From Escherichia phage EJP2: DNA of 64,000 bases. Below the pieces are notes generated by a model. That model made no database searches and was not told the DNA's origin. It saw nothing but the letters and a program-made list of their open reading frames with translations. The first letter of the stretch is position 1, and each line of letters starts with the position of its first letter. The position numbers and the translations under genes are program-made. Positions 16,878 to 50,944 of this stretch are shown piece after piece. Location of the stretch: sequence record OQ411014.1; one strand, given 5' to 3'.

Positions 16878-17357
16878 ATGGAATTAAGTTTAAAGCACCA
16901 GAATGCTCTGAAACGAGTAATGGACCATATCAAAACGAACAAGTCACTTTCTATGAGTACGTATGATTCCTTCCACAAAACAACACAAGTGTGGGCGAGT
17001 GATTCATTCGATAACTCGAAAGATAAAAGTAATTCTTGTATAGAAGATACTGATGGTGTAATATATGTAAATCTAAAGTACTCAAATTTTGAAGAAATGT
17101 ATATGTATATCGACATCAGAGATATGGTGGTTAACATTTCATATGCATATGATGAAGACATTGCTGCATTGAAACATGAATCGGAGATAACAAATGATTA
17201 TTGGTATGCTGATTTCACTGTTCCGATATTTGAAAAAGAAGAAGAATATTTCCAGTACTTAACTACTGAAGAGAATCCTTTGTCTATAGAAGAAAACAAA
17301 ATGTTTATTGATTTTGTTGTTGAATTTTATAAAAGAAAAGAAAAACATATTCGTTGA
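16878..17357 (+). CDS. FFQ-motif family protein
   Basis: ORF track 16866..17357, second in-frame ATG preferred (GGAGAG RBS); motif KEEEYFQYL. Confidence 0.55.
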   Translation: MELSLKHQNALKRVMDHIKTNKSLSMSTYDSFHKTTQVWASDSFDNSKDKSNSCIEDTDGVIYVNLKYSNFEEMYMYIDIRDMVVNISYAYDEDIAALKHESEITNDYWYADFTVPIFEKEEEYFQYLTTEENPLSIEENKMFIDFVVEFYKRKEKHIR

Positions 17358-17382
17358 CACATGACCTGTACTTGAGTATAAT
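17354..17382 (+). promoter_or_regulatory. sigma70-type promoter TTGACA N17 TATAAT with hairpin spanning the -10
   Basis: Inverted repeat ACCTGTACT/AGTACAGGT encloses the -10 and is followed by a T-run. Confidence 0.5.
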
Positions 17383-17417
17383 CAGTACAGGTTTTTTTAT
17401 TGTCAAAAGGTGAAGAC

Positions 17418-17885
17418 ATGACAGCCCAAACTATAGCAAAGCACTTTCAACAGGAATGTGAAACGTTCAGGACATTTAAAATTGACAACTGGTTAGGTCC
17501 AGATGGTAAGCCAACTGTAGATTTCAATGCTAGTGGTGAAGGAATTACTAATTACTACGCCCCGAACTATAAACCATCTGTAGGTTTAGCACAGACTATA
17601 TACATCGGCAATTATGCAACATCTATTGGTGTAGTTGGTGGTGATGGAACAGGTGATATTGAACTGGATTTGAGTTATTATTACGAAACCAGTACTCTGA
17701 AGATTCACTACAGTTATACTAACGCCAATGACTACGGTCAGATTGAAACGAAAATTAGCGGTACTGAAGAAGATTACTTTCAACAAAGTACAATTCATGA
17801 GAAGCTATTCTCGCTGGAGTTCGAAAAAGAAATGTACGAATTCTTTCAAGAAGTCAAGAAACATTTCGCATATAAATCTAGGTGA
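17418..17885 (+). CDS. FFQ-motif family protein
   Basis: ORF track 17400..17885 (TTG) trimmed to ATG with GGTGA RBS; motif GTEEDYFQQST. Confidence 0.55.
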   Translation: MTAQTIAKHFQQECETFRTFKIDNWLGPDGKPTVDFNASGEGITNYYAPNYKPSVGLAQTIYIGNYATSIGVVGGDGTGDIELDLSYYYETSTLKIHYSYTNANDYGQIETKISGTEEDYFQQSTIHEKLFSLEFEKEMYEFFQEVKKHFAYKSR

Positions 17886-17888
17886 CAT

Positions 17889-18302
17889 ATGAGTAAGTTA
17901 TTTGAAGAGTTATTAGACATGCTCGTTCAAGGGGCATATGATTTGGGTACGTTCTCTGCTGAAGAACATGCACGGAAATTCCGCTACGGCCTGACTAGTT
18001 CTTCTATGATCGTCGGGACGTACGCAGTGTTTGCACCTGATTCGTCCTTTAGTCTCAAAAGTGAAGCATATACTATTGACAAAGACGTATTGAAACTACC
18101 TAACGGTACTAAGATTCCACACAAAGAGTGCCAAACAGAAGAACAGTACTTCCAATTTAGTTTATTAGAGAATACTCTGGACCTGGAGTACCATGAATAC
18201 GCGTACGTTGTGAAGAAATATAAAACTCTACAATTCACTGCGAATCGCAAGATTTATCATTACAACAATTTATCACATAACAGTTTAGTTGCGAGGTACT
18301 AA
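17889..18302 (+). CDS. FFQ-motif family protein
   Basis: ORF track; motif QTEEQYFQFSL. Confidence 0.55.
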   Translation: MSKLFEELLDMLVQGAYDLGTFSAEEHARKFRYGLTSSSMIVGTYAVFAPDSSFSLKSEAYTIDKDVLKLPNGTKIPHKECQTEEQYFQFSLLENTLDLEYHEYAYVVKKYKTLQFTANRKIYHYNNLSHNSLVARY

Positions 18303-18700
18303 TGATGTGGACTATCAATGTAAAATATCAAACTGGGGATAGCTTTGGTTCTTCTGAATCTGAAGATACTATCCCTGTTGTGTGGGAAAACTTGGCATTA
18401 GCTAAAGAAGCACTACAGGCGATCCGTAATCACAACACAGCGGCGAATGAAATCGATAACGCAAGAAACCGTGAAGCAAAAATTGCATCCATGATGAAAT
18501 ACAATGCTGAGTACTGGTTCCTTCCATCAGAGAACCTGACAGGCCAGCACTGGGACTACAACTTAGCAGTACTGAACGATGATCGAATCCCTACTATTAT
18601 TCATGCTTTCTGGCGTGGATACTTTGAGCGTATTATTTGTGCTAAGATTGTGAAGTACACTGAAGATGATGAAGATGATGGTATGGAAATTTATTTCTAG
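18302..18700 (+). CDS. hypothetical protein (132 aa)
   Basis: ORF track; overlapping start/stop. Confidence 0.55.
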   Translation: MMWTINVKYQTGDSFGSSESEDTIPVVWENLALAKEALQAIRNHNTAANEIDNARNREAKIASMMKYNAEYWFLPSENLTGQHWDYNLAVLNDDRIPTIIHAFWRGYFERIICAKIVKYTEDDEDDGMEIYF

Positions 18701-18728
18701 TTGACAACGCATTCAGTACTGATATAAT
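18701..18728 (+). promoter_or_regulatory. sigma70-type promoter TTGACA N16 TATAAT with TCAGTACTGA in spacer
   Basis: Spacer and -10 context TTCAGTACTGATATAAT is identical to the promoter at 38714. Confidence 0.55.
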
Positions 18729-18759
18729 GTCAGTACTTTAACCAACTAAGGGTAATGAA

Positions 18760-18939
18760 ATGCAAAAGCAACGTATAGTGAACGTTCCAAAGGCGAATGA
18801 ACCTAATAACCGTGTGTTAGGGTTCGTGGTCGATTCTTCTAAAATTCCAGTAATGGGTTTATTCGAAGAAGAGTTCGAAGAAGAGTGCATTAACTATCTT
18901 CGTTCTAAGGGTTATGTTATTCAGTCCATAGGGGAATGA
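18760..18939 (+). CDS. small hypothetical protein (59 aa)
   Basis: Uninterrupted frame found by hand downstream of promoter; AAGGG RBS; below ORF-track cutoff. Confidence 0.45.
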   Translation: MQKQRIVNVPKANEPNNRVLGFVVDSSKIPVMGLFEEEFEEECINYLRSKGYVIQSIGE

Positions 18940-18940
18940 T

Positions 18941-19456
18941 ATGTTTTCAATTATGTACAAAGATGAGAATAATCAGCCACAGTACTTAGAGAGTTCCAGA
19001 TTTTACTCTTGGACTGATGATCTCGACGATGCTGCAAAGTTCGCACAAGAGAAGACAGCAGAAAAAGAAGTCAAGAAGATGTACAAAAATGGCTTCGATG
19101 AACAACTCTACGTAGTCTCTGTGAAGTGTGTTGCTATGTCTTTGAATACTGTAAAAATGCCCCCTATGAAGAATGGGTATACTTTCTGGTTGTCTGTTAC
19201 TGAAGAGTTCTATCGTGGTCCTAAGAAAAACTTCGGATTCAGTTCTTTCAGTACTGCGGTAAGTGCATGTACTATATTCAAAACAGAAGAAGAAGCTGAA
19301 AAAACAATGCAAGAATATATTCAGTTCTTGCAGGATTGTTATAATATGTATAAAACAACTTCACCTTCGTATAAAGTATATAAAGATACATATGATAAAG
19401 AATCAGTACAGCTTCGTGTTGTGAAAATTGTTGATGGGAAAATGCACAATGCGTAA
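18941..19456 (+). CDS. hypothetical protein (171 aa)
   Basis: ORF track; start overlaps upstream stop. Confidence 0.55.
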   Translation: MFSIMYKDENNQPQYLESSRFYSWTDDLDDAAKFAQEKTAEKEVKKMYKNGFDEQLYVVSVKCVAMSLNTVKMPPMKNGYTFWLSVTEEFYRGPKKNFGFSSFSTAVSACTIFKTEEEAEKTMQEYIQFLQDCYNMYKTTSPSYKVYKDTYDKESVQLRVVKIVDGKMHNA

Positions 19457-19937
19457 AATTCATCACAAGATGAAACCCTTCTGGAAAGAAGTTGATGGGC
19501 TGGTGGAGTACTTAGTGTACTACCATGCATTTGGTTCCGTCTATGAACGACAAGGCTTGAAGGACCGTTCCATCTGTATCAATAAATCCAAATCGTACTT
19601 CATTTCATTTCAGTACGATAACTTATTGTACATGATTCTTTACAGCCTGAAGAACCCGAATGTGTTTTCTATTGAGATTGCAGATACATGGGACAAAACA
19701 TCATATTCTACACTATATGATTTCACTGTACCAGTACTGCTAACTGAAGAAGAACTGTTCAGTAAAGCATTGACGCAAGACATTGCGGAGTATAGTATTG
19801 AATTGCATAAGGAAGTATATAATTACTTCATGTACGTTCACACTATGCTTGGGGTTGGTCAGTTGAAAGATATGGACCCAATCACACCGCACATCCAGTC
19901 AGTACTGGATTCTGTAAAAGATTTGAAGAAGTGTTGA
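19434..19937 (+). CDS. FFQ-like family protein (start uncertain)
   Basis: ORF track 19428..19937 (TTG); first ATG used; motif LTEEELFSKAL. Confidence 0.5.
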   Translation: MGKCTMRKIHHKMKPFWKEVDGLVEYLVYYHAFGSVYERQGLKDRSICINKSKSYFISFQYDNLLYMILYSLKNPNVFSIEIADTWDKTSYSTLYDFTVPVLLTEEELFSKALTQDIAEYSIELHKEVYNYFMYVHTMLGVGQLKDMDPITPHIQSVLDSVKDLKKC

Positions 19938-19962
19938 CATAGGGGGAATCTTCCCCTATAAT
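19934..19962 (+). promoter_or_regulatory. sigma70-type promoter TTGACA N17 TATAAT with hairpin in spacer
   Basis: GGGGGAATCTTCCCC inverted repeat sits in the spacer. Confidence 0.5.
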
Positions 19963-19989
19963 TAATTCATACAAAACGCAGAGGTTAAC

Positions 19990-20691
19990 ATGGACATTAC
20001 TGATTCTTTAATTGTGGTATTACGTAATCACATACAAAAGCACTTCAATAGGACTGAAATTAGAAATTTCAATTATGAACTATCTGAATGCACCAAGCTG
20101 CAATTTGTACACGAAGAACCATTTAAGGTTATTAGTGTAGCATTTGTTTCCGAAGGTGGGTGTACACAGCATCCGTTCTTTGAGTTCGAGGACAAATACT
20201 TAAAGAGTGCATTTAGCTATGAAGATACTATTTCAATTGAAACATCAAGGATTGCACCAATTCATATAGAAACGATTCCGTGGAGTCGATTACTTGATGC
20301 ACCTGCAATTCAATGCGAACCTGACTGGGTGGGACTTAGTATTGAAGTAATATCGTACATTCAATATCCTACGTCAGACGATTATGGATTTGCTCTTGAT
20401 GCGTACCTATTACAATGTACTGATTTGAAGATGAAAACAGTACTGAAGACTTCCAGAAAGCGAACTGACCTGATATACTATAAGGATGAGATTATAGCTA
20501 TCATGTCCGGTACTGGATCATATGGGATGCGTTATACAGTACTCAGTACTGATAGAGATAAGTTCACTGAAATGATACATACAATCATTACAGAATCCAA
20601 AGCTGAAGATTACAAAATTCCAATTGAACATACGAAAGTGATTGACTTCACCCAAGACCCTGATGTATACTTTCATGTACCAGGTTTATAA
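19990..20691 (+). CDS. hypothetical protein (233 aa)
   Basis: ORF track; GAGG RBS. Confidence 0.55.
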   Translation: MDITDSLIVVLRNHIQKHFNRTEIRNFNYELSECTKLQFVHEEPFKVISVAFVSEGGCTQHPFFEFEDKYLKSAFSYEDTISIETSRIAPIHIETIPWSRLLDAPAIQCEPDWVGLSIEVISYIQYPTSDDYGFALDAYLLQCTDLKMKTVLKTSRKRTDLIYYKDEIIAIMSGTGSYGMRYTVLSTDRDKFTEMIHTIITESKAEDYKIPIEHTKVIDFTQDPDVYFHVPGL

Positions 20692-20710
20692 ACAAACATA
20701 GGAACAGAAA

Positions 20711-20905
20711 ATGAAATTTTTTGAACGTATCGTCGCATCAATCAAAGCATATCTTGGTAACAACAACACAGGCCCAGGTGAGCTAGAGTGCTGGCGTGAT
20801 TGGGATAAACGTATGGATAGTATTGTTCCAGCGGCACATCCTAAGACGTATGACCGTTACGACCCGAAGTACAATCTTCATGAAAAAATTGAAAAAGATT
20901 CATAA
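20711..20905 (+). CDS. hypothetical protein (64 aa)
   Basis: ORF track; TAGGAA RBS. Confidence 0.5.
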   Translation: MKFFERIVASIKAYLGNNNTGPGELECWRDWDKRMDSIVPAAHPKTYDRYDPKYNLHEKIEKDS

Positions 20906-20910
20906 AAAAA

Positions 20911-20939
20911 TGAGACAAACTGGAAAATTGTGATATAAT
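20911..20939 (+). promoter_or_regulatory. extended -10 promoter (TGAGAC N~17 TGTGATATAAT)
   Basis: Third copy of TGTGATATAATATAA block; followed by ~95 nt leader with hairpin. Confidence 0.45.
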
Positions 20940-21036
20940 ATAATTATCCAAACATCGTCGGATGTAAAACGAAAAACTCACAGCGTTCAATCATTTGAAC
21001 GCAATTCTATAGAAAAGTAATAAAAGGATTTATAAA

Positions 21037-21258
21037 ATGGCTAACGAACTAAACCAAACCGCAGTAATCGCTGACATTTCCGATGTAGAACGTACCATGA
21101 ACTACATTCAATTCCAACTAAGTCAAGCAGATGCTGAATTGGCTACCTTTGCTGGTACAGATGCTAAGAAAATCTGTTATGTTCACCTACTTGCTTGGAA
21201 GCAAGAGCTACAAACTGAACTACATGAACTACGCAAAGCTCTAAAGCGTAAAGCATAA
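21037..21258 (+). CDS. hypothetical protein (73 aa)
   Basis: ORF track; AAAGGA RBS; host-like codon usage. Confidence 0.5.
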   Translation: MANELNQTAVIADISDVERTMNYIQFQLSQADAELATFAGTDAKKICYVHLLAWKQELQTELHELRKALKRKA

Positions 21259-21261
21259 GTT

Positions 21262-21296
21262 CATAATGAATGCCATCCACATGGGTGGCATTTTTA
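21262..21296 (+). terminator. rho-independent terminator
   Basis: ATGCCATCC/GGGTGGCAT hairpin followed by TTTTT. Confidence 0.5.
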
Positions 21297-21319
21297 AACT
21301 TACCTATTTGGAGATTATA

Positions 21320-21568
21320 ATGAAACAAGGCGATTTGGAGCAACAAGTCAAACATCTACACAAACGTATTGAGCAGATGAAAGCCCAACGTACAGAAGCG
21401 TGGAGTAAATGGCAAGAACTACAAAACGTACAAGCAACTCGTGAAATTCAAAAAGAAATTTCTTCTCTTTCTGGATTGATTTGTTCTCTGAACTATAGTA
21501 TTATGGGTACTCAGAAGACGTACAAAGAAGCGTGTTCCGAATTGATTTCATTCATCACTAAAGGGTAA
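21320..21568 (+). CDS. coiled-coil protein (82 aa)
   Basis: ORF track 21266..21568 trimmed to ATG after GGAG RBS (track start lies in terminator). Confidence 0.5.
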   Translation: MKQGDLEQQVKHLHKRIEQMKAQRTEAWSKWQELQNVQATREIQKEISSLSGLICSLNYSIMGTQKTYKEACSELISFITKG

Positions 21569-21573
21569 TAACA

Positions 21574-22101: not shown

Positions 22102-22104
22102 TCA

Positions 22105-22127
22105 AAAGGGGTCTTGTGCCCCTTTTT
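22105..22127 (+). terminator. rho-independent terminator
   Basis: AAAAGGGGTC/GTGCCCCTTTTT hairpin. Confidence 0.55.
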
Positions 22128-22144
22128 CGTGTAAGGAAATGAAT

Positions 22145-22444: not shown

Positions 22445-22446
22445 TT

Positions 22447-22947: not shown

Positions 22948-22956
22948 GGAACAACA

Positions 22957-23229: not shown

Positions 23230-23366
23230 TAATACCAAAAGAAGAATAACATAATTATATCCCTCCCCTACCTATGGGATTTGGTGTACTAGTACTGCAA
23301 TAGTACTGTACATCCCGTTGGTAGACAACTTGTGTATCTCCTGCACATATAAACATCCGCAAACTG

Positions 23367-23396
23367 TCCAGCTTTATGCTGGACTTTTTGTTTTTA
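23367..23396 (+). terminator. rho-independent terminator
   Basis: GTCCAGC-TTTAT-GCTGGAC hairpin followed by T-run. Confidence 0.5.
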
Positions 23397-23438
23397 TGCT
23401 GTTATAATTTAAGTATTAACAACCATAAAGAGATAATC

Positions 23439-23828: not shown

Positions 23829-23834
23829 GGACAG

Positions 23835-24170
23835 ATGATGTTAGAACTACTAGAAACAATCCTGTACGCAGCTAGAGCAGAACGATATGATAAACTCGAT
23901 GCACTAGCACCTAAAGTGTTTTATGGTCGAGAAGGTGATGCGATATTGTCCTTTACTATCATGACAGAAGAAAACTTTTCTATCATGATTAGGGCAACAC
24001 ACGTCATTGACTGTCGTTGTAAAAACTGGTCTGACGCAACATTGAAGTACGGTTACAAGGAAGATGAATTCTTCTTAGAATCACTCAAGCGTGAAATACA
24101 TTTTTCCTATGAAGAATATCTACTTGCACAAAAAATTTCAGAAGTTCTAAAAAGACTCGCATATAAATGA
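23835..24170 (+). CDS. FFQ-like family protein
   Basis: ORF track; motif YKEDEFFLESL. Confidence 0.55.
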   Translation: MMLELLETILYAARAERYDKLDALAPKVFYGREGDAILSFTIMTEENFSIMIRATHVIDCRCKNWSDATLKYGYKEDEFFLESLKREIHFSYEEYLLAQKISEVLKRLAYK

Positions 24171-24196
24171 GAAATTTAGGATAAATGTGATATAAT
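24168..24196 (+). promoter_or_regulatory. extended -10 promoter (TGAGAA N17 TGTGATATAAT)
   Basis: Fourth copy of TGTGATATAATATAA block; followed by ~140 nt leader with two hairpins. Confidence 0.45.
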
Positions 24197-24338
24197 ATAA
24201 TTATTAGGGACATTCGTCCCAACCGCCCTCACTGAAGCATGGTCAGACTCAGTGAGCACACTACGGGTGCTCTGACTGGTAAATGGAGGCTACCATAGAT
24301 GTAGCCTCCAATTTATCCTTAAACAAAAGGAGAGCAAA

Positions 24339-24794: not shown

Positions 24795-25157
24795 ATGACA
24801 AAGCACCGTACATTACATAATGCAATAAAACATGTTCATACTAATATCAGTACTATCATGTCTAACCAGCCATATATATGCGGTGCTTTGGAATTCACAT
24901 CTCTAGGACACCAAACTGTCCACGCATACGAACTCTTCTGGAACACCCACAGAGCCATTACTATTGATATGTATGAGAATCACATGGCCTTCAAATCATG
25001 GAACGTTGATACGTACCGATGGATGGATGTGTGCAAGATAAGTTATGACATCACCAGGGAAGAGTTCGATCAGTTGTTGTTCGTTCATGACTTACGTACT
25101 TTGGAGTTCAAATCATTCAAGTACCTAAAGCTCATCAAAGAACACATTTTCAGTTGA
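24795..25157 (+). CDS. hypothetical protein (120 aa)
   Basis: ORF track. Confidence 0.5.
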   Translation: MTKHRTLHNAIKHVHTNISTIMSNQPYICGALEFTSLGHQTVHAYELFWNTHRAITIDMYENHMAFKSWNVDTYRWMDVCKISYDITREEFDQLLFVHDLRTLEFKSFKYLKLIKEHIFS

Positions 25158-33696: not shown

Positions 33697-33758
33697 TTTA
33701 GAGCTATAATGAATCCGCTCTGTGCGGATTCTTTTTTTTAATATCAAAGGAGAAAGTA

Positions 33759-34751
33759 ATGACTGTAAAACAACTCAATCTAGAATCTATTCAAGACGAT
33801 ATCATGGATGAATGTTTTGTAAATGAAAACAATACGTTCGAGCGTATTAGTGAACAGTCACATGACAGTACTGAAGAAGTAGAAGAAAGTACTGATGACG
33901 TAGGTTCTTTCAAGACTTACAACACATCTAGCGTTTTACCAGAAGGTGAGACGAATGAATCTATTATTCGTTTAATCCGTGACGGTATCAATGTGAAGCG
34001 TAACATTGACCTTATCGTACGTAACAACGTAGGCTTAGTATATAGCCAAGCACGTCAGTGTACTTGTAATATCCCATTCCAAGATAAAGCACAGTACGCT
34101 TTTGAAGGTCTAATGCGTGCAATCCATCGTTATGATGTGAATCAGAATATTCTTTTCAGTACTTACGCTACTGTGTCTATTCGCCAAACACTCTATAACT
34201 TTGGTAATGATGAAGTTCGTCTAATCAGTATTCCACGTCACTTGTCAGTGGATAACATCAAGATTCAGAACTACATTGAGAAGCATCGTTCTAAGTTCGG
34301 TCGTACCCCAAGTGAAGATGAAATCAGTACTGCTACTGGCATCAAGTTATCCGCAGTGAAACGTGTAGTGCAGTACATGAACAGTAAGCCAATGAGTTTC
34401 GATACTCCAATGGGTTCTGACAGTACTGAAAACGATATGAGCTTAGTGGATGTAATCCCAGGAACTTCCAATGATTACACACTAAGTGCAGATACAGTTC
34501 AGAAAGCACCACTAGATGTAATTGCATTGGTCATGTCTGAACTACCAGAAGAAGAGCAGTTGCTGATCAATAAGATTCACGGCTTGAATGGACATGAAGA
34601 AAGTACTTTTATTGCTCTAGAGACTGCTGGATTGGTAGATGCGAAGGGTAAGAAGCTAACTAACCGTTGCACTATTCATCGTCGTTACAATGCAATACTG
34701 GATAAGATTCGTAATATTCTAAAAGCACGTGACATTTCATTCGATGACTGA
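33759..34751 (+). CDS. RNA polymerase sigma factor, sigma70 family
   Basis: Region 2 match VGLVYSQARQ..FEGLMRAIHRYD..FSTYATVSIRQT and C-terminal region-4-like helix-turn-helix; AAGGAG RBS. Confidence 0.7.
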   Translation: MTVKQLNLESIQDDIMDECFVNENNTFERISEQSHDSTEEVEESTDDVGSFKTYNTSSVLPEGETNESIIRLIRDGINVKRNIDLIVRNNVGLVYSQARQCTCNIPFQDKAQYAFEGLMRAIHRYDVNQNILFSTYATVSIRQTLYNFGNDEVRLISIPRHLSVDNIKIQNYIEKHRSKFGRTPSEDEISTATGIKLSAVKRVVQYMNSKPMSFDTPMGSDSTENDMSLVDVIPGTSNDYTLSADTVQKAPLDVIALVMSELPEEEQLLINKIHGLNGHEESTFIALETAGLVDAKGKKLTNRCTIHRRYNAILDKIRNILKARDISFDD

Positions 34752-35296: not shown

Positions 35297-35470
35297 GTGA
35301 AAACTAAAAACTCAAAATCTTTAGGTACATATGTGAATGGTAATCGCTATGCGAAAATCAGTACATGTATTGATTGCAGTACTGGAAATACTTTATACTA
35401 TTACTGTATTCCTGGTGAGCGGGTGTATATCAGTTCAGAAGAATTCAAGAATGAATGGGTAAAAAACTAA
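35297..35470 (+). CDS. small Cys-containing protein (57 aa, GTG start)
   Basis: Uninterrupted frame found by hand; TAAGGAA RBS. Confidence 0.35.
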   Translation: MKTKNSKSLGTYVNGNRYAKISTCIDCSTGNTLYYYCIPGERVYISSEEFKNEWVKN

Positions 35471-35476
35471 AACAAA

Positions 35477-35512
35477 ATGCTTGACTTCGGTCGAGCATTC
35501 TTTTAATATAAT
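35477..35512 (+). promoter_or_regulatory. terminator-promoter module (hairpin containing -35 TTGACT, T-run, -10)
   Basis: ATGCTTGAC-TTCG-GTCGAGCAT hairpin then TTTT then TAATAT. Confidence 0.5.
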
Positions 35513-35549
35513 TGCATCAACTACACTACTACACTTGAGGATAACAATC

Positions 35550-38682: not shown

Positions 38683-38712
38683 ACAGTACAGAAACTTTTC
38701 TGTACTTTTTAA
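38683..38712 (+). terminator. rho-independent terminator
   Basis: CAGTACAGAAA/TTTCTGTACT hairpin followed by TTTTT. Confidence 0.55.
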
Positions 38713-38713
38713 G

Positions 38714-38740
38714 AAAAAAGAGTTGACACAGATTTCAGTA
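38714..38740 (+). promoter_or_regulatory. sigma70-type promoter TTGACA N15 TATAAT with TCAGTACTGA in spacer
   Basis: Spacer and -10 identical to promoter at 18701. Confidence 0.5.
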
Positions 38741-38801
38741 CTGATATAATTACTACATCAAGAACGAACTAACTAAAACACTCAAACATAGGATTAAAAA
38801 T

Positions 38802-39371: not shown

Positions 39372-39677
39372 ATGATTGGTGTAAATTGGAATATCATTGT
39401 ATTATGTGTACCGTTGTTATTCATGACTATTGCAATGCTTGTCCGAATGTGGAAGCCCAGCATCACTGAAAAGGATATCGGATTCAATCCGCTGATTCAG
39501 CTACTCGACAATGTTTTATGTATGTGGGTAGTACTGGCATTCGTTTGGCTCTATGTATTCAATGAAGATTATCTAAACGCCAGAGCAGCACTGTATTCAA
39601 TGATTGCACTTGGGTGGTTGTGGTTGACGTGCTTCACTATTCAAACTACAGTAAAGTTCTTTCAAAATAAGGGTTGA
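39372..39677 (+). CDS. membrane protein (101 aa)
   Basis: ORF track. Confidence 0.5.
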   Translation: MIGVNWNIIVLCVPLLFMTIAMLVRMWKPSITEKDIGFNPLIQLLDNVLCMWVVLAFVWLYVFNEDYLNARAALYSMIALGWLWLTCFTIQTTVKFFQNKG

Positions 39678-39700
39678 CTTCGGTCAACCTTTTTTGAGCC
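39671..39700 (+). terminator. rho-independent terminator (hairpin-with-TTGACT family)
   Basis: GGTTGAC-TTCG-GTCAACC then TTTTTT. Confidence 0.55.
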
Positions 39701-39742
39701 TAATTTTGGGAACTTGATCTAGATCAATGTACAGGAGTAGTA

Positions 39743-43420: not shown

Positions 43421-43425
43421 ACGAA

Positions 43426-43728: not shown

Positions 43729-43743
43729 GAGGAAAGCTAAGTT

Positions 43744-44018: not shown

Positions 44019-44040
44019 ATAACAATTCAGTACTGAAGAA

Positions 44041-44073
44041 TGGGTTGACTTAGGTCAGCCCTTTTGTTATAAA
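44041..44073 (+). promoter_or_regulatory. terminator-promoter module (GGGTTGACTTAGGTCAGCCC hairpin, T-run, TATAAA)
   Basis: -35 TTGACT inside hairpin stem, 17 nt spacer, -10 TATAAA. Confidence 0.55.
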
Positions 44074-44120
44074 TAACGGTATAGAAAAACACTATATGAA
44101 ATCTATGGAGAGAAATCAAA

Positions 44121-45641
44121 ATGCCAAATGATATGAAACACAAGAATGGTGCATTAGTACAACACTCTGACAAATGGAGTGAAGCTAATCGTCGTAAGAA
44201 TTCACACAACGCAGGCCAAGGATCTCGTGGCTCTCGCAATCAGGGGACTGGTGAAGCTGGTAAAGCTAATACAGTTGCTTCTGGTGGTATGGACACTTCC
44301 AATATGTCTCAACATGAGAAACTAAAGTACTTCAACAGTTTAGGACTCCTAAACCCTACACAGAAGAAGCAATTACAAGACATGGACGCTGCTGCATCTG
44401 CACCAAAAGAACAGCCACAGCAAGCTCCTAAAGCTGCTCCTGCTGGTAATCCTGTCAAAGAGCTATCTGATAACTTAGGTCGTATCTTTGCACAGAAGCC
44501 TAATCTAATTCAAGGTATTGTAAAAGAACTACAAGCAGTACCGAAGGAAGAGCTAAAGAGTAAAGCACAAGCTGTACTTGATGCTATGAAAGGCAATCGC
44601 AGTACTGAACCAACCGAAGTATTCAGTACTATCATGCGTGCACTTCAAGCTAAACCACAAGCTGCTCCAGCACAGAAAGCACCTAAGATGGACAGTGCAC
44701 AGGACATGTCAGATTTGTTTGGTAAAGTTGGTGCTGAAGGTAAGAACAACGCACAACAAGTCAAGAACGTCCAAGCTAAGATTATTGATCGTTTAGGTGA
44801 TAATCAAGACAAGACTAAGCGGGCATTTGACGCATTGAACAAAGCACTTGAATCTTATGTTCCTGGTGAGAAAGACAAGTTCCAGACCATCATGAACGCA
44901 GTCTTTGGTGAAATGAAGAAGTACGAAGCAGAGCACGGTGAGAAGGTATCATCTGATGGCTATATGATTCGTAAAGACGAAGAAGGTGCAGTAGACCAGA
45001 AAGATGCTCCTAAAGAGCAAGAAGACCTACCTGATACAGTTGATATGGATGGTTACATTTCTCGTCCAGATGAATATGACTTCGGTTCAGACAAAGAAGG
45101 TTATGAGTATGCTATGGACATTTATCGTTTCCTAGCTAAGAACTATGATTATGCTAACAAGTACGTAGATCAGTTTGTCAGTGCTTGGGATAATTACAAA
45201 GATAAAGGTTATGACTTCCCTGCGGAAGCTGCATTCTTTGAGTTAGGTAAACTACTCCAGAAAGATGGTGTAGAGATTGGCTCGAAAGAAGATACTTCTA
45301 GTCTAGATGCAGAATTGGCAAAAGACCGTCAAATGACACCAGGTTCTAAAGCTGAATTGAATAAGCTCCTATCATGGATTGTTGACATTGGTAAAAATGC
45401 TGGTAAAGATAACAAGAGTATCAACCGCAGTATTTCTTGGATCAATAATAAAATTGATAACAACGGGCGTAAGCTACAGAAAGCATGGAGTGATTTAGTC
45501 AATGGTGCAGATGAGATCGATATTGATTCTCCTGAAGCATATGAGTATGCGATGACGACTCTAGACAATTCCTTCCAGGACTATGAAAATGGTAATCTAA
45601 CTGCTAGTGAACAAGACATCATGCGTTCACACGGAAAATAA
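44121..45641 (+). CDS. large A/K/Q/P-rich protein (506 aa)
   Basis: ORF track; GGAGAG RBS; low-complexity N-terminal half; host-like codon usage. Confidence 0.65.
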   Translation: MPNDMKHKNGALVQHSDKWSEANRRKNSHNAGQGSRGSRNQGTGEAGKANTVASGGMDTSNMSQHEKLKYFNSLGLLNPTQKKQLQDMDAAASAPKEQPQQAPKAAPAGNPVKELSDNLGRIFAQKPNLIQGIVKELQAVPKEELKSKAQAVLDAMKGNRSTEPTEVFSTIMRALQAKPQAAPAQKAPKMDSAQDMSDLFGKVGAEGKNNAQQVKNVQAKIIDRLGDNQDKTKRAFDALNKALESYVPGEKDKFQTIMNAVFGEMKKYEAEHGEKVSSDGYMIRKDEEGAVDQKDAPKEQEDLPDTVDMDGYISRPDEYDFGSDKEGYEYAMDIYRFLAKNYDYANKYVDQFVSAWDNYKDKGYDFPAEAAFFELGKLLQKDGVEIGSKEDTSSLDAELAKDRQMTPGSKAELNKLLSWIVDIGKNAGKDNKSINRSISWINNKIDNNGRKLQKAWSDLVNGADEIDIDSPEAYEYAMTTLDNSFQDYENGNLTASEQDIMRSHGK

Positions 45642-45654
45642 GTAAAAATAAGGG

Positions 45655-45683
45655 TTGACATATGTCATCCCTTTTTGTATCCT
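45655..45683 (+). promoter_or_regulatory. terminator-promoter module variant (GGGTTGACATATGTCATCCC)
   Basis: Hairpin with TTGACA in stem followed by TTTTT and weak -10. Confidence 0.45.
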
Positions 45684-45720
45684 ATCAGTACTGAATTAAT
45701 CCCAACTAAGGTGACAAAAC

Positions 45721-46041: not shown

Positions 46042-46355
46042 TGCTGAGACTAATCATGACTAATCCACAATCTGATTTTGATATTGAAGTGTATGTAGGT
46101 TCTAATGTGTACCCTGAAATCTTGTCAGATGTACAGGAACTGAAAGGTACAAGTTCAGTACTGCACTTTGAAGAACTTTGCGTGAAGTACGGTTCTATGG
46201 GTGATAAAGAGTTTATTGCATTCTACATGGAAGCGAGAAACTTGAAGTTTTTAGATGGTTCATATTTCAAAGTACAAGAAACAGTCGCAGCAGACTATTC
46301 AAAGAAATATGAAAGTTCAATCATTGACTTGTATAAAAAGTACGGAATCTTATAA
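46041..46355 (+). CDS. hypothetical protein (104 aa)
   Basis: ORF track. Confidence 0.55.
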   Translation: MLRLIMTNPQSDFDIEVYVGSNVYPEILSDVQELKGTSSVLHFEELCVKYGSMGDKEFIAFYMEARNLKFLDGSYFKVQETVAADYSKKYESSIIDLYKKYGIL

Positions 46356-46364
46356 GGAACTCCA

Positions 46365-46742
46365 ATGCGTGTATCATATAAAGTAACTGAATTCAACAAA
46401 GATTTGTTAGTACGTTCTATGTTTGAAGATGCGAAATCATTCAAGTACTTCAAAATTGGATTAGATGCGTGTATTGAGATTCAGAAGTTGATAGATGCTG
46501 GATATATCATCATGGATAATGGTGAACCTATTCCACGGCATTATGAGTTCAAGATTGCATTTGACTCATTCGATTCAGTGCTTAGTATGCCGCGACTGGG
46601 ACCAGATGGGGTTATGTGGTTAGGTTCAACTATGGGTAACATTGAAGATACTGTGTTTGTGTATAAGAAAGAACTCAACGAAGCATTTGGTAAACTTTCT
46701 TACATCAAGCCAGAAGACCAATGTAAACTGAAATTTATTTGA
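46365..46742 (+). CDS. hypothetical protein (125 aa)
   Basis: ORF track; TAAGGAA RBS. Confidence 0.55.
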   Translation: MRVSYKVTEFNKDLLVRSMFEDAKSFKYFKIGLDACIEIQKLIDAGYIIMDNGEPIPRHYEFKIAFDSFDSVLSMPRLGPDGVMWLGSTMGNIEDTVFVYKKELNEAFGKLSYIKPEDQCKLKFI

Positions 46743-46749
46743 GGTATGT

Positions 46750-47082
46750 ATGTTAGTATATAATTACTTCAGTTTTATAATCTTCATGATGTTTTCGCTT
46801 TATATCATCATGGGTAACGTTGCGTGTTTCTTGAAGCATTATAAACTCGCAAACAGATGGTTTATGATGACAAATCCTTGCTTCCCGAATTTCTGTGCAT
46901 TTATATCTGGGATTTTAGTACTGGTAGATTTGTTCTTGGGTATCTCATCGGAACAACCATGCTTCTCTGCGGTAGCGATGACATTTTTGCTCGTTGCAAC
47001 AGTCCTGGGTATTGTGTTTATCATCTGTACAGTACTGATAGAGTTGATTAGTGATTGGCGACGAAAGTGGCCTGAACAATAA
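46750..47082 (+). CDS. multi-pass membrane protein (110 aa)
   Basis: ORF track. Confidence 0.5.
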   Translation: MLVYNYFSFIIFMMFSLYIIMGNVACFLKHYKLANRWFMMTNPCFPNFCAFISGILVLVDLFLGISSEQPCFSAVAMTFLLVATVLGIVFIICTVLIELISDWRRKWPEQ

Positions 47083-47095
47083 CATCATAAAAGGG

Positions 47096-47124
47096 TTGAC
47101 TTCGGTCAGCCCTTTCTGTATTAT
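47096..47124 (+). promoter_or_regulatory. terminator-promoter module (GGGTTGACTTCGGTCAGCCC, TATTAT)
   Basis: -35 TTGACT in hairpin stem, 17 nt spacer, -10 TATTAT. Confidence 0.55.
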
Positions 47125-47151
47125 ACATACATCAACTGAGAGGATAATTAA

Positions 47152-47580
47152 ATGCGTGTATTTCGTTTTGAATTAAAATATTCTATTCTTGAAGGTAAGT
47201 ACAACTCTATCATTACTGGTATGGGACCATTCACATGGTACTACAAAGATTACAGTACTGAAGCTGGCTACCGTGCACTTGAAATGAAAACGCTTGAAGA
47301 GTGTCAACCAGAGCCAGAGGATGATGGTATTCATGCTATTAAGAACGGATGGGCTTTTGGGTGTGACTCACTGGAATCGCTGTATGAGTTCTTTAATGCT
47401 GATATCCAGGCTTTGAGTGCTGCTGGGTTTGCAGTGTCTGAATATGAAGTTCCTTATCAGCACGTAGACATTGGTCTACATCAAGTACAGTACTACAAAA
47501 AGAGTGCACAATTGCTAGCTATCCATGATGTGAATGAAATATTCAAATCAGTACTTGACAATTGTACTGTTCAGTACTAA
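47152..47580 (+). CDS. hypothetical protein (142 aa)
   Basis: ORF track; GAGAGGA RBS. Confidence 0.55.
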   Translation: MRVFRFELKYSILEGKYNSIITGMGPFTWYYKDYSTEAGYRALEMKTLEECQPEPEDDGIHAIKNGWAFGCDSLESLYEFFNADIQALSAAGFAVSEYEVPYQHVDIGLHQVQYYKKSAQLLAIHDVNEIFKSVLDNCTVQY

Positions 47581-47612
47581 ACTATATCTAACTTAACAGA
47601 GGAATCAAACAA

Positions 47613-48224
47613 ATGACTAAATGTGCTTACGGTCTGGACTATTCCATCAATGGTAAATTCACATCTCTCGGCACTTCTAACGATTGGCGTGCCATTTTTG
47701 AGACATTCATTAATGATGTTATTAGCACATCAGTTGAAAGTGTTGAATATGCAATCCTCACGTTCAACGATGAACCGATTGTAAATTCAGTACTGGACGT
47801 TATTCTTTTTGGGATGGTAGAACACAAATATCGTGTAGTTCTTTTGAATAAAGAACGTGACACTATTATTTCATGTGCTTCTTACAACGAAACATATAAC
47901 ATGCGTGAATGTAATTTATGCTCTGGTATTATTGAAGTAAAAGCAGTAAATCAAAACAACTTATGTTTTTCATTGGGTAAGGACTTTTCATTTAGTAGTG
48001 CTGATTTTGAAGTGTTCATGAATGATTGGAATACTATGCATCTCAAGACTAAAACTAAAATTTCTAGCTTACAACGCCCTACTGAAGTTGCAAAAAACGA
48101 GAATACTATTCAGTACCATGTCAGTACTGAATTAGAGAAAGCAATCAAAGTAATTGATTCTAATCCAGAAGAAGCAAAGCGTATTCTTAACGTAATGCAA
48201 TATATGTTCACTAACAAAGGATAA
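47613..48224 (+). CDS. hypothetical protein (203 aa)
   Basis: ORF track; AGAGGAA RBS. Confidence 0.6.
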   Translation: MTKCAYGLDYSINGKFTSLGTSNDWRAIFETFINDVISTSVESVEYAILTFNDEPIVNSVLDVILFGMVEHKYRVVLLNKERDTIISCASYNETYNMRECNLCSGIIEVKAVNQNNLCFSLGKDFSFSSADFEVFMNDWNTMHLKTKTKISSLQRPTEVAKNENTIQYHVSTELEKAIKVIDSNPEEAKRILNVMQYMFTNKG

Positions 48225-48229
48225 TTGAA

Positions 48230-48826
48230 ATGCTATTCAATAAAAGTAATTATTTTTCAGTACCGAAGGTTTCTGGCAAACCGCTCCAAATGACTTTTGA
48301 TATGAATATCAGTACTATATTCTATAATTTGCTTCGCATTCAAAATAATGATAAAGAGTTCGTCTTGGGTAAAGCAGCAATTTACAATTCAGATGATATT
48401 CCTTTGATTTGTGATTTTGATAAAATTCTTGAAGCAGCACGTTCAGCCACCAGTAGAGTATATAAATTCACTGTTTGTGATTTGTCACAGAAGGTACTTG
48501 ATTATAGTTTCTATATGGATGAAGAAAGTTTGAAGGTAAGTATCACAAATATCATCAATGCAGACATTACCCTTGATAAGAAACCGCACCTTTCGATCAC
48601 AGATAATGAGACTGGGGAAACTCGAAGTGGTACTGTGAATGAAATTTATGATCATTACTTCCATGCACAGATTGCACCTAAAAATGATTCTACTATGTCT
48701 GTAGTACTGGACATGGAAGAAGTACTGAATGAAATGCGTCCTATTATTCAGAATGGTACTGACGTAGAAAAGTCCAACGCAAAAGCAATCCTGGCGTATG
48801 TTGCAGCTAAATTGGCTAAACAATAA
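48230..48826 (+). CDS. hypothetical protein (198 aa), paralog of 53302 gene
   Basis: ORF track; C-terminus LNEMRPIIQNGTDVEKSNAKAILAYVAAKLAKQ matches VNDMREQIKSGTDKEKIEAKAVLSYIATKIALKQ. Confidence 0.6.
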   Translation: MLFNKSNYFSVPKVSGKPLQMTFDMNISTIFYNLLRIQNNDKEFVLGKAAIYNSDDIPLICDFDKILEAARSATSRVYKFTVCDLSQKVLDYSFYMDEESLKVSITNIINADITLDKKPHLSITDNETGETRSGTVNEIYDHYFHAQIAPKNDSTMSVVLDMEEVLNEMRPIIQNGTDVEKSNAKAILAYVAAKLAKQ

Positions 48827-48832
48827 AAGAAA

Positions 48833-48856
48833 AAAGGAGACTTTGTAGTCTCCTTT
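48833..48856. terminator. bidirectional rho-independent terminator
   Basis: AAAGGAGAC-TTTGT-AGTCTCCTTT between convergent genes. Confidence 0.6.
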
Positions 48857-48860
48857 CTTT

Positions 48861-50039
48861 TTATGGTAAATCAAATTCCGTATATGAATATTTGTATACA
48901 CCATCTGGTCCACGACCTGAGTATCGTAATTTACCAGAAGTAGTTATATATGCTGAAGTAATATTACTAGTACTGAATATGTTAAACACTGACTTCATAT
49001 CATTCACTGTACCGTTACCGAATGGTATCAGGTTAAGTTCATTGCCGTTGACACCAGTACTCAATCTTCCTGAAGAATTTGCTCCACAACCATATGCATT
49101 TGATGGGCTAAGAGCAACGTAACCAGTATTACTAGTATAATAACTTAGTAAACCAATAAAATTCTCTGTAGTGGCTATTTCAGTAAAGACTCTAATATTG
49201 ACAGAACTATTCACTCCATTACCTAAGTTTCCAGCATTCTGGCTTCCCGCAGCATATAGATGTGTTTTACCAGTACCGTCACTGTACAATATTGTGAATG
49301 CTGATTCAGTTAGACCAATATCAAAAACACTAAGACCTGGGTCTGGTAGTGGTACTTGTGTTAGCACATTTATTCTTGTATCTGGATGACCAATACCGAG
49401 TTGACCAAATGAGTTTGAACCTGAAACCCAAACACTTAAATCATTTTTTAATATCAGTACTGATGAATTAACAAATTCAACTTTTTGAACATCTGATGTA
49501 AGTTTTGAGAAAGTAGTTAGTGCAAGATAATTACCAGTTGCTAGTTGGCCTTGGTTATTAAAACCGCTTCTATAAAGATCACCATTGTTCATTAATATAT
49601 ATAATGCATATACACCAGCATGAACAGATGTTATTTGATTAAGATTCCCTGTACCTATACCAGCTTCAATAAATGGGGTACAATCAGTATATGATGTCAC
49701 AACTTCAGTAGATGATGTATTGCCAGTTTGAAAGCTACGGCGACCAGTATATAATAATTTTCCATCCATAGTTTTAATGATAACAAAACTTGTGTTTGTA
49801 CACCAAACATCTTGAACATCATCTCTGATTAAAGTCCACTCTAGCTTTTGTTCTGTTGGCTTTCCATCCCCATAGATATAATTATCAACTGTTCCTCCAC
49901 CGATACCATACAATCTGTTATCATCATATAATACCATAAATGCCGGACGAGACGATGCATAAGGTACTAATATTTTTGTAATTTCAGGTAATGAAGGTGC
50001 TTTATTACCATAATTAAGCATTCGTACAAAAGGTAACAT
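48861..50039 (-). CDS. RCC1-like repeat (beta-propeller) protein (392 aa)
   Basis: ORF track; GGAGA RBS on minus strand; repeated G-x-N-x-x-G-Q/N-L-G motifs (GFNNQGQLATG, GSNSFGQLGIG, GSQNAGNLGNG). Confidence 0.65.
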   Translation of the reverse strand: MLPFVRMLNYGNKAPSLPEITKILVPYASSRPAFMVLYDDNRLYGIGGGTVDNYIYGDGKPTEQKLEWTLIRDDVQDVWCTNTSFVIIKTMDGKLLYTGRRSFQTGNTSSTEVVTSYTDCTPFIEAGIGTGNLNQITSVHAGVYALYILMNNGDLYRSGFNNQGQLATGNYLALTTFSKLTSDVQKVEFVNSSVLILKNDLSVWVSGSNSFGQLGIGHPDTRINVLTQVPLPDPGLSVFDIGLTESAFTILYSDGTGKTHLYAAGSQNAGNLGNGVNSSVNIRVFTEIATTENFIGLLSYYTSNTGYVALSPSNAYGCGANSSGRLSTGVNGNELNLIPFGNGTVNDMKSVFNIFSTSNITSAYITTSGKLRYSGRGPDGVYKYSYTEFDLP

Positions 50040-50148
50040 AATTAAATCTCCGTCTAATAATTATAATGTATTTACCAAAAAGGACTTGACAGTACTGAAC
50101 AGTACTAGTAGAATTGTATCCAAGATAACTCACTAAGGAATATCCAAA

Positions 50149-50439
50149 ATGACAACTGTTACTTATTATCAAACACGCCGCCTTTTTGACATGACTGAAG
50201 GGCGTGGCCCAATGATCAATGATTTGGCATTCACTGAGTACCGCCATGCTGAAGCATACATCAACTCCCAACCTGGTGTTATGGGTCGTCGCTGTAACTG
50301 GACACAAGAGCGTCATGCGTCTGACTGGGACATTCAAACAGTACACGCCAGGACTGAAGCCTATGATCCACAAGAAGAAGCACGTCAGCGTGCATTAGCT
50401 AAACTAACCAAAGAAGAACGTAAACTACTAGGACTCTAA
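50149..50439 (+). CDS. hypothetical protein (96 aa)
   Basis: ORF track; TAAGGAA RBS; promoter TTGACA at ~50082 with two CAGTACT copies in spacer. Confidence 0.55.
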   Translation: MTTVTYYQTRRLFDMTEGRGPMINDLAFTEYRHAEAYINSQPGVMGRRCNWTQERHASDWDIQTVHARTEAYDPQEEARQRALAKLTKEERKLLGL

Positions 50440-50440
50440 T

Positions 50441-50653
50441 ATGACAGTACAACTAAAAACTTATAAAGAAGATGATAAAACATATGTAGCTACTGGTTTT
50501 ATCAAAGACAATGGCTTCCATCGTGCACACGATCAACGTCAATACACAGCAGAACGTGCTGGCGGTGAAGTACTCAACACTGACAGCTATGATGATGCAT
50601 TAGCTTTCATTGCTGCCGGACTAGGTAAACCAGAGCGGTTATATACGTTATGA
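50441..50653 (+). CDS. hypothetical protein (70 aa)
   Basis: ORF track. Confidence 0.5.
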   Translation: MTVQLKTYKEDDKTYVATGFIKDNGFHRAHDQRQYTAERAGGEVLNTDSYDDALAFIAAGLGKPERLYTL

Positions 50654-50916
50654 AATACATTCTAGTACTTCTAAGTATCTTCTTTCTTACGGCATGTGAA
50701 CCGGAAGAAGAACGTGAAGAACGTATTGATGCGAAGTATCTGGTGGCGAATGATTGTAAGTACACTGGCGAATCCTTTATAAACGAAGAAACCATTATGG
50801 TGGGTCCAGCCCGTTTCTCTAGGCCAGAGGTCGTTGAGAAGCGTTATTACGTGTATAAATGCAGTCAAGAGCGGAAGGTTCTCGCTACAGTTCGATTTGA
50901 AATTGAAAAAGAATAG
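50650..50916 (+). CDS. lipoprotein (88 aa)
   Basis: ORF track; signal MKYILVLLSIFFLTAC with lipobox LTAC. Confidence 0.55.
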   Translation: MKYILVLLSIFFLTACEPEEEREERIDAKYLVANDCKYTGESFINEETIMVGPARFSRPEVVEKRYYVYKCSQERKVLATVRFEIEKE

Positions 50917-50944
50917 TTGACACACAATGGGAGTACTGTATAAT
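50917..50944 (+). promoter_or_regulatory. sigma70-type promoter TTGACA N16 TATAAT with hairpin across -10
   Basis: GGGAGTACTGTATAATACTCCC inverted repeat encloses -10. Confidence 0.5.

Follow-up and report, generated by a model that had tools for sequence, protein, structure and literature searches.

The DNA analyzed here is a 64,000-nucleotide stretch of Escherichia phage EJP2 (record OQ411014.1), hereafter called "the window", in which several strong promoters have a hairpin built into their own boxes. The window has a G+C content of 37% and a GC skew that is positive over its full length. It carries about 130 open reading frames (ORFs), mostly small and nearly all on the + strand, with few functional matches, and six tRNA genes. 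At 17354, 19934 and 50917, a perfect inverted repeat spans the promoter spacer or the −10 hexamer, as the preliminary description of this DNA had stated and as can be read directly from the sequence. Each of these promoters matches TTGACA and TATAAT at all 12 hexamer positions, with spacers of 17, 17 and 16 nt, respectively.

The hairpin is placed differently among the sites. At 17354 (−35, 17354-17359; −10, 17377-17382), the arms ACCTGTACT (17364-17372) and AGTACAGGT (17384-17392) form 9 bp and enclose an 11-nt loop that holds the −10, and the T-run reported to follow this repeat is indeed present, as T7 at 17392-17398. At 19934 (−35, 19934-19939; −10, 19957-19962), the hairpin occupies the spacer and reaches 3 nt into the −10. 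Its arms, ATAGGGG (19939-19945) and CCCCTAT (19953-19959), pair perfectly over 7 bp around a 7-nt loop, and the stem reaches 9 bp when one G·U and one A-U pair are counted. At 50917 (−35, 50917-50922; −10, 50939-50944), the arms ATGGGAGTA (50927-50935) and TACTCCCAT (50944-50952) form 9 bp with the −10 in the 8-nt loop. A fourth such site, absent from the preliminary description, was found at 18701 (−35, 18701-18706; −10, 18723-18728). Its arms, AGTACTGA (18715-18722) and TCAGTACT (18730-18737), lie around TATAATG with a 7-nt loop, and are two copies of the AGTACT palindrome discussed below.

These promoters are fitted closely between the neighboring genes. The −35 of 17354 contains the TGA stop codon (17355-17357) of ORF 16866-17357, and that of 19934 contains the TGA (19935-19937) of ORF 19428-19937; the same arrangement exists at the perfect promoters 2965, 25154 and 32196. 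At 50917, an upstream TAG (50914-50916) abuts the −35, as it does at the perfect promoters 18701 and 33491. A ribosome-binding site (RBS) and an ATG follow 30-40 nt downstream of the −10 at the three sites (RBS at 17406 with ATG at 17418, and ATGs at 19990 and 50977). The upstream DNA is slightly enriched in A+T (0.67, as compared to the genome mean of 0.63) and has local A-tracts. When the 12 perfect promoters of the window are aligned, a C-A(-T) sequence is conserved at +6/+7/+8 past the −10, with C in 9 and A in 10 of the 12, and the C-A is present after the −10 in the class II copies described below as well. It corresponds to the usual −1/+1 pair at the usual distance from the −10, and is thus likely to be the start site. 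The predicted starts probably fall inside the 3′ arms at A17389, A18735 and A50951, and beyond the hairpin at A19969. A start in or past the 3′ arm would mean that the RNA made from the promoter itself lacks the 5′ arm, while read-through RNA from upstream would hold the whole hairpin.

The coincidence of promoter and repeat is far from random. TTGACA-N15-19-TATAAT occurs 12 times in the window, always on the + strand, against 0.29 expected (~40-fold). At 5 of the 12 perfect promoters, the 44-nt segment beginning with the −35 contains a perfect repeat of 7 bp or more, as compared to 4.7% of genome-wide 44-nt windows (binomial P=1.4e-4), and at 4 of the 12 it contains one of 8 bp or more (background 1.55%; P=2.6e-5). 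When the hexamers were kept fixed, 0 of 2000 shuffles matched these repeat counts. The predicted RNA folds agree: −15.3 kcal/mol at 17354 (z −4.5) and −12.6 kcal/mol at 50917 (z −4.2), each with 0 of 200 shuffles equally stable, and −11.0 kcal/mol at 18701 (z −4.6). The 19934 fold (−11.6 kcal/mol, z −2.3) is marginal and the weakest of the three original sites, with 5 of 200 shuffles equally stable. The repeat at 25154 was dropped as a fifth site, as it is AT-rich, unstable (z −0.8) and unconserved in the relatives.

A relaxed promoter scan, terminator scans and a pattern search of the window revealed a second element, hereafter called "class II", which the preliminary description had not included. 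It has the form AAAAGG(G)TTGACTTCGGTCAGCC(C)TTTTT-TATTAT and is present in 11 copies. The + strand pattern (A)nGG(G)TTGACTTCGGTC(A/G)GCC(C)T4-6 accounts for 10 of them, and the eleventh is the TTGACATATGTCA variant at 45655. In this layout, TTGACT serves both as the −35 and as the 5′ arm of a terminator stem with a UUCG tetraloop, and the T-run of the terminator is the promoter spacer. A TATTAT or TATAAT lies 17-18 nt past TTGACT in seven copies, while three copies have a weaker or late-like −10: TAATAT (35481), TATAAATA (44045) and TATCCT (45655). The copies at 56645 and 54806 are near-identical from the stem through the 5′ untranslated region (5′UTR), and only the A-rich flank upstream of the stem differs. 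The TATAAATA that follows the hairpin at 44045-44075 resembles a T4-type late promoter, and the gene behind it is a virion gene inside the early region. The features are collected in Table 1.

Table 1. Coordinates of the promoter/hairpin elements and of the genes in the window
Feature	Coordinates	Strand	Remarks
Composite promoter/terminator 1	17354..17398	+	hairpin around −10, then T7
Composite promoter/stem-loop 2	19934..19962	+	G5/C4 hairpin 19939-19959, without U-tract
Composite promoter/stem-loop 3	50917..50952	+	−10 in hairpin loop, without U-tract
Fourth site of the same type	18701..18737	+	arms bracket −10
Class II variant AATGCTTGACTTCGGTCGAGCATT	35470..35525, at 35481	+	compensatory G-C to C-G; weak −10
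Class II, terminator-only copy	39663..39718, at 39674	+	hairpin and T6, without −10
Class II variant, UUAG loop	44034..44090, at 44045	+	followed by TATAAATA; upstream of 44121-45641
Class II variant GGGTTGACATATGTCATCCC	45644..45699, at 45655	+	one T·T mismatch; weak −10
Class II, AAAAGGGTTGACTTCGGTCAGCCCTTTCTG-TATTAT	47085..47140, at 47096	+	−10 17 nt after −35
Class II, GGGGTTGACTTCGGTCGGCCCTTTTTGT-TATAAT	53229..53285, at 53240	+	two U·G pairs
Class II	53964..54020, at 53975	+	insertion point in close relatives
Class II	54795..54850, at 54806	+	rearrangement junction
Class II	56191..56246, at 56202	+	downstream of HNH endonuclease gene
Class II	56634..56689, at 56645	+	near-identical to 54806 copy
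Class II	56928..56983, at 56939	+	
Perfect promoter 38723-38750 with terminator-like hairpin	38685..38750	+	hairpin 38685-38706, then T5
Terminator GTCCAGCtttatGCTGGAC and T-run	23366..23408	+	3′ arm gives −35-like TGGACT
C5 cytosine methyltransferase gene	4761-5618		
Sigma-70-family sigma factor gene	33759-34751		
Virion protein genes	including 44121-45641		
HNH endonuclease gene	55095-56192		
Two RCC1-repeat protein genes		−	

The relatives of the window define the frame for comparison. By nucleotide BLAST, the window gives only 150-bp matches, to Klebsiella jumbo phages. The 506-aa virion protein (44121-45641) shares 61-68% identity with proteins of ~350-kb RaK2-like Escherichia phages, including A4, 121Q and PBECO4 (Asteriusvirus), and the 287-337 kb region of phage A4 is syntenic with the window, with rearrangements and protein identities of 30-80%. 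Judged from these similarities, the window is the early/host-takeover region of a genus-level relative of the RaK2/Asteriusvirus-like jumbo phages. Metagenome contigs with 95-100% identity to the window also exist; those used here as close relatives (L002-L021) were chosen by their identical or near-identical proteins, and the more distant sequences were A4 (L001 and L025), RaK2 (L023) and Vibrio phage TCU-VP03-AIR1 (L022). A search of 5.8 billion proteins with the gene downstream of 17354 returned only two clusters, at 99% and 86% identity, and IMG/VR scans with two flanking proteins found no relatives. In Rfam, no family matched the promoter or hairpin elements, and only the six tRNAs were matched.

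The strand on which the class II stem acts can be read from its base pairs. The two T's of TTGAC in the stem pair with G or A, forming U·G or U-A pairs, and the predicted folding energy of the + strand RNA is −14 to −17 kcal/mol, as compared to about −10 kcal/mol for its complement. A covariance model built from the window copies was used to search the window, A4, RaK2, the Vibrio phage and two close relatives. It gave 54 hits (44 distinct sequences). The coding strand accounts for 49 of them; the other five, which run opposite, are the weakest and overlap coding-strand hits. In the alignment, 95.7% of the cells are paired and 14 cells are changed on both sides, a level that none of 500 shuffles reached, while slid controls are only 23-59% paired. 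Differences between strains also preserve the pairing, with U·G to U-A and G-C to G·U at 53975 in L012, U·G to U-A at 54806 in L013, and T·T to U·G (T to G) at 45655 in L021, although some strain variants break a pair, as in L015 and L017 at 53240. The G·U pairs and the pairing-preserving changes thus favor a function of the class II stem in sense-strand RNA, where it would act as a terminator.

Conservation extends across genera for class II. Despite protein identities of 30-80%, its copies occupy orthologous junctions in A4, where they precede the orthologues of 47152 and 54833 and follow those of 53038 and 44121. A BLAST search with one 68-nt copy (window 54795-54862) matched 128 phage records, including RaK2-like phages of Escherichia, Klebsiella, Salmonella, Erwinia, Cronobacter and Pectobacterium, 36 KVP40-group Vibrio phages, and Yersinia PY100-like, Pectobacterium and Aeromonas phages. 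The copy in Vibrio phage TCU-VP03-AIR1 (L022 3000-3056) reads aaaaaGGGTTGACTTCGGTCAGCCCtttcttgTATTATtctcatatcgaaacgaa, and its similarity extends into the 5′UTR with the motif CATCGAAACGAA. This distribution suggests the horizontal spread of a class II regulatory cassette across phage families. At the other sites, the element at 17354 is unchanged from the −35 through the T-run in seven of nine related contigs (95-100% identical), and the only differences, seen in the other two contigs, are an additional T in the T-run and two changes in the spacer that leave the stem untouched. At 19934, one loop change and one G-C to G·U change are seen, and almost no substitutions occur in the three hairpins among L002-L021. 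In A4, the orthologous genes around 18701 and 50917 lie directly against their neighbors, with no intergenic promoter at those junctions.

The class II copies also coincide with rearrangements. Strains that are 97-99% identical differ by whole-gene cassettes with junctions in these copies: close relatives carry an inserted 470-bp denV-like gene cassette directly past the −10 of the 53975 copy, and L013 has, fused to its 54806 copy, the gene that in the window comes after the 56645 copy. Many of the metagenome contigs end at the 54806 copy. Other strain indels fall at plain gene boundaries, and we saw no rearrangement at 17354, 19934 or 50917, where the neighborhood is collinear in all of the relatives. 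As compared to L012 and L013, the stretch 53975-57000 is hypervariable, with a denV-like gene present or absent, a changed gene order and alternating homing-type endonuclease genes (HNH at 55095-56192 versus a 466-aa DUF723 protein). Whole-ORF indels between strains are also seen in the tRNA cluster (12019-12439, 13237-13494 and 12686-12982), and L004 has a 232-aa ORF in place of tRNA-Met and a small ORF.

We consider it probable that these hairpins are composite promoter/terminator cassettes of the type known as promoter-early stem-loops (PeSLs), here in the early region of a RaK2/Asteriusvirus-like phage, and we are more confident of this for 17354 and class II. The genes are small and packed, with a stop codon in or against the −35, so a signal that ends the upstream transcript must share its sequence with the next promoter. 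We propose the following scheme. In RNA that reads through from upstream, both arms would be transcribed and the hairpin would form. With the U7 of 17354 and the T-run spacer of class II, it would work as an intrinsic terminator, while at 19934, 50917 and 18701 it would at most attenuate more weakly or protect the 3′ end. The host sigma-70 RNA polymerase would bind the same DNA as a duplex and start at the C-A about 7 nt past the −10. A start inside or past the 3′ arm would leave the new transcript unable to form the hairpin, and hence not terminated. The predicted outcome is a chain of insulated transcription units of ~1 kb each, and the repeated cassettes would also supply homology for the gain, loss and reshuffling of gene cassettes. 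The earlier proposal of an RNA terminator is supported for 17354, with its stable hairpin and U7, and is less well founded for 19934 and 50917, where we have correspondingly less confidence in termination as such.

Several observations weigh against this interpretation. Seven of the 12 perfect promoters have no overlapping hairpin. After the stems at 19934 and 50917 come UAUAAUUAAUU and CUUAACG, respectively, so that these two sites, without a U-tract, do not fit the definition of a canonical intrinsic terminator. Both stems are pure Watson-Crick, which makes them uninformative about the strand and about RNA versus DNA, and the 50917 hairpin is more stable on the − strand. In at least one relative (L014), an extra, uncompensated G in the 5′ arm of 50917 creates a bulge and a 17-nt spacer. 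No compensatory changes are to be had at the three sites, the relatives being either too similar (95-100%) or, like A4, too distant. Finally, three of the five repeats have the AGTACT palindrome in their arms, and at 18701 the repeat is nothing but two copies of it.

This palindrome, in its 8-mer form CAGTACTG, is a genome-wide motif and a matter separate from the promoter hairpins. It occurs 84 times in the window (for example at 139, 2969, 18714, 29054 and 38736), against 1.1 expected from dinucleotide shuffles or 3.7 from a trinucleotide model (z 42), an excess of about 20- to 75-fold, and is the top 8-mer in the window as well as in A4 and RaK2. Two 50-kb regions of A4 contain 29 and 39 copies and a 50-kb stretch of RaK2 contains 78, where about 1-4 are expected, and the core AGTACT is found 240 times in the window, with 22.8 or 52 expected depending on the null model. 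In 50 kb of the T4-like phage RB49, AGTACT is absent. The motif is spread evenly along ORFs and non-coding DNA, in early and late regions and in two reading frames, with the flanks TTnCAGTACTGAA. It also abuts promoters: GTACTG(N0-1)TATAAT occurs 4 times in the window (0.36 expected), 6 in A4 (0.24) and 15 in RaK2 (0.54), TTGACWGTACTG occurs 5 times in the window (0.24), and 11 of the 19 near-perfect early promoters of RaK2 (TTGACW-N16-18-TAWAAT) read TTGACA-N9-10-(c)AGTACTG-TATAAT. A codon or dipeptide effect was rejected on account of the use of two frames and of its presence in non-coding DNA, both in proportion to the sequence share. A simple extended −10 was also rejected, as the TG has the canonical offset in the window (TGaTATAAT) and is one base off in RaK2 and A4 (TGTATAAT). 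A role at strain indel junctions was rejected too, as only 3 of 16 junction sides lie within ~25 nt of a copy (~1 expected) and most are plain gene boundaries. Our literature search on the motif found nothing relevant. We hold it doubtful, if conceivable, that CAGTACTG is the site of a clade-specific dimeric DNA-binding protein that marks or organizes the genome and shuts off early promoters against the polymerase. If so, some of the repeats that flank hexamers (18701, and 48230 and 49446 of RaK2, L023) would be paired CAGTACTG sites rather than RNA hairpins.

The excess of this motif bears directly on whether the repeats at the promoters mean anything. They might be functionless, arising by chance or as a by-product of AGTACT/GTAC-rich sequence favored on both sides of the −10. 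The 5-10-fold over-representation of AGTACT, the GTAC cores in the arms of 17354, 18701 and 50917, the failure of the 25154 repeat and the marginal standing of 19934 against shuffles all point this way. However, the genome-wide background already includes the AGTACT excess and still gives P values of ~1e-4 to 1e-5. While CAGTACTG accounts for the 18701 repeat and the GTAC cores, it explains neither the 4-5 bp of complementarity beyond the core at 17354 and 50917 nor 19934, which has no GTAC. It also leaves the T7 after 17354 unexplained, and the same architecture is established in RB49; we therefore regard the absence of function as improbable. An operator, in which a dimeric phage or host regulator on a palindrome over the spacer or −10 switches the early promoters, would fit the overlap of the repeats with the RNA polymerase footprint, as well as the true palindrome that abuts the hexamers above chance and forms the 18701 arms. 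The preliminary description had likewise offered a binding site for a dimeric regulator. Yet the arms ACCTGTACT, ATAGGGG, ATGGGAGTA and AGTACTGA are unrelated and share no half-site, their loops vary from 7 to 11 nt, the class II stems tolerate G·U, which is a mismatch in DNA, and CAGTACTG is evenly spread through the genome, including the middle/late region of A4, and is thus not promoter-specific. A single regulator site of this kind is quite unlikely.

An action of the hairpin in DNA, suggested earlier as occluding or positioning the promoter, fares no better. Arms of 7-9 bp with long loops are poor cruciform formers, a cruciform or supercoil-switch promoter was rejected on this geometry and on the consensus duplex spacing, and the G·U pairs of the related class II favor the + strand RNA by 4-6 kcal/mol. 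If the hairpins act in RNA, they might still serve as 3′-end stabilizers or processing signals of the upstream mRNA, chiefly at 19934, 50917 and 18701, where stable stems without a U-tract stand directly past the upstream stop codon. Stems of 8-9 bp are, however, too short for RNase III, no separate upstream terminator that would create the 3′ end is seen, and a reporter assay showed efficient termination by PeSL stem-loops of the G-run/C-run type (PMC2839356), which leaves this role very unlikely.

Composite promoter/terminator cassettes, as we read them, are not limited to these placements. At least 20 promoter/hairpin composites are present in the 64 kb, with the stem-loop over the −10 (17354, 18701 and 50917), in the spacer (19934), on the −35 (the 11 class II copies) or upstream (38723). 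At the last site, the hairpin with its T5 sits immediately upstream of the −35, which fits the "upstream" subclass of PeSLs. In the 23366 terminator, the TGGACT lies 17 nt before a TATAAT at 23403-23408. In a third class of promoters (614-643, 8402-8431, 20910-20939 and 24167-24196), the −35 is weak and the extended −10 invariably reads aaaatGTGATATAATATAAtta; two copies precede tRNA genes (682 and 8487), and two precede non-coding stretches. About 110 nt past the 24167 promoter (24200-24320) contain no ORF and have a strong predicted structure ending in the terminator GGAGGCTACcatagatGTAGCCTCC, of which only the loop differs in the relatives L003 and L007. This stretch, which has no Rfam match, may be a small RNA. 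The perfect promoter 33491 is followed by a 240-nt leader with a strong terminator (33711-33731 and T8) before the sigma factor gene at 33759, and this terminator may be an attenuator or may end a short upstream transcript.

How do these elements compare with known systems? Promoters whose function is tied to a DNA hairpin include those of the N4 virion RNA polymerase, with short loops of specific sequence, and Frpo of the F plasmid, in which the −35 and −10 are formed by pairing in single-stranded DNA. Both types were rejected here on account of the consensus sigma-70 boxes at duplex spacing and the varying hairpin sequences, and N4-type promoters on arm and loop geometry as well. Intrinsic (Rho-independent) terminators share some features: at 17354 and in class II, a hairpin on the coding strand is followed by 4-7 U past a stop codon (U4-6 in class II). 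In contrast to such terminators, the 11-nt loop of 17354 holds a −10, and 19934, 50917 and 18701 lack the U-tract.

The closest match is to the PeSLs of RB49 and phi1, in which a consensus sigma-70 promoter is combined with a stem-loop (Arbiol et al. 2010, PMC2839356). An upstream A/T-rich stretch with a stop codon and a downstream Shine-Dalgarno sequence (SD) and ATG flank the unit, the stem-loop lies between the boxes or overlaps the −35 or −10, and the stems contain G-T pairs (PMC2839356). Terminator and promoter activities were demonstrated by lacZ fusions, one stem-loop lowered the expression of lacZ to the same extent as rrnB T1, and complete PeSLs acted as strong promoters. PeSLs also recombine with each other, by which gene mini-circles are excised, and modular shuffling is mediated by the cassettes (PMC2839356, PMC4122927). 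PeSLs were later extended to T4/PST and KVP40/nt-1, with the nt-1 stem-loop consensus A3-4G3-loop-C3T3-4 and a −10 of TAWWAT (Comeau et al. 2014, PMC4122927).

The window shares most of this anatomy. In the RB49 sequence, we found perfect promoters including TTGACAggggatcggtgatccccTATAAT and TTGACAgggggtcaccgatccccTATAAT with the same design as 19934, and TTGACAggggatcggtgatccccTATAAT is nearly the same in design as the TTGACAtagggggaatcttccccTATAAT of 19934. Near-perfect TTGACA-N17-TATAAT promoters, the upstream stop in an A/T-rich stretch, the downstream SD/ATG, the placement of the stem-loop, stems with G-T pairs and the dense repetition among small ORFans of the early/hyperplastic region are all present in the window. 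The link to gene-cassette indels is seen at class II 53975 and 54806/56645, and the sites 17354, 19934 and 50917 are collinear among the relatives. Unlike RB49 and phi1 (Straboviridae), however, the window belongs to the ~350-kb RaK2/Asteriusvirus-like lineage, and the stems of 17354, 18701 and 50917 are GTAC-based rather than G-run/C-run; the window sites are known from their sequence alone. Class II fits the stem-loop consensus and the TAWWAT −10 of KVP40/nt-1, and a KVP40-like Vibrio phage has aaaaaGGGTTGACTTCGGTCAGCCCtttcttgTATTAT...atcgaaacgaa, nearly identical to the window copies including the 5′UTR. In the KVP40/nt-1 paper, the stem-loop is upstream of the promoter and the −35 is TTGYVH, while in class II the TTGACT is itself the 5′ arm of the stem.

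The genome papers on CBB and RaK2 list RpoD-like early promoters and terminators separately or leave promoters unmentioned, with no mention of overlap, and our literature search on the class II sequence found nothing relevant. The coupling of upstream termination to downstream initiation, which the preliminary description had suggested, would be the same as the published interpretation of PeSLs (PMC2839356). By this analogy, PeSL-type cassettes would extend from the T4-like to the RaK2/Asteriusvirus-like jumbo phages, overturning no current view. The near-verbatim sharing of the cassette GGTTGACTTCGGTCAGCC-T5-TATTAT-...CATCGAAACGAA between enterobacterial jumbo phages and Vibrio KVP40-like phages fits the idea of regulatory modules that move between phage lineages and take genes along. 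Class II would represent a compact natural design for gene insulation, in which the terminator stem is the −35 of the next promoter and the U-tract is its spacer, and such cassettes should help to annotate the transcription units of 350-kb genomes. As their layout matches that of the PeSLs, the sites in the window would be a further example of a known design, in another phage lineage.

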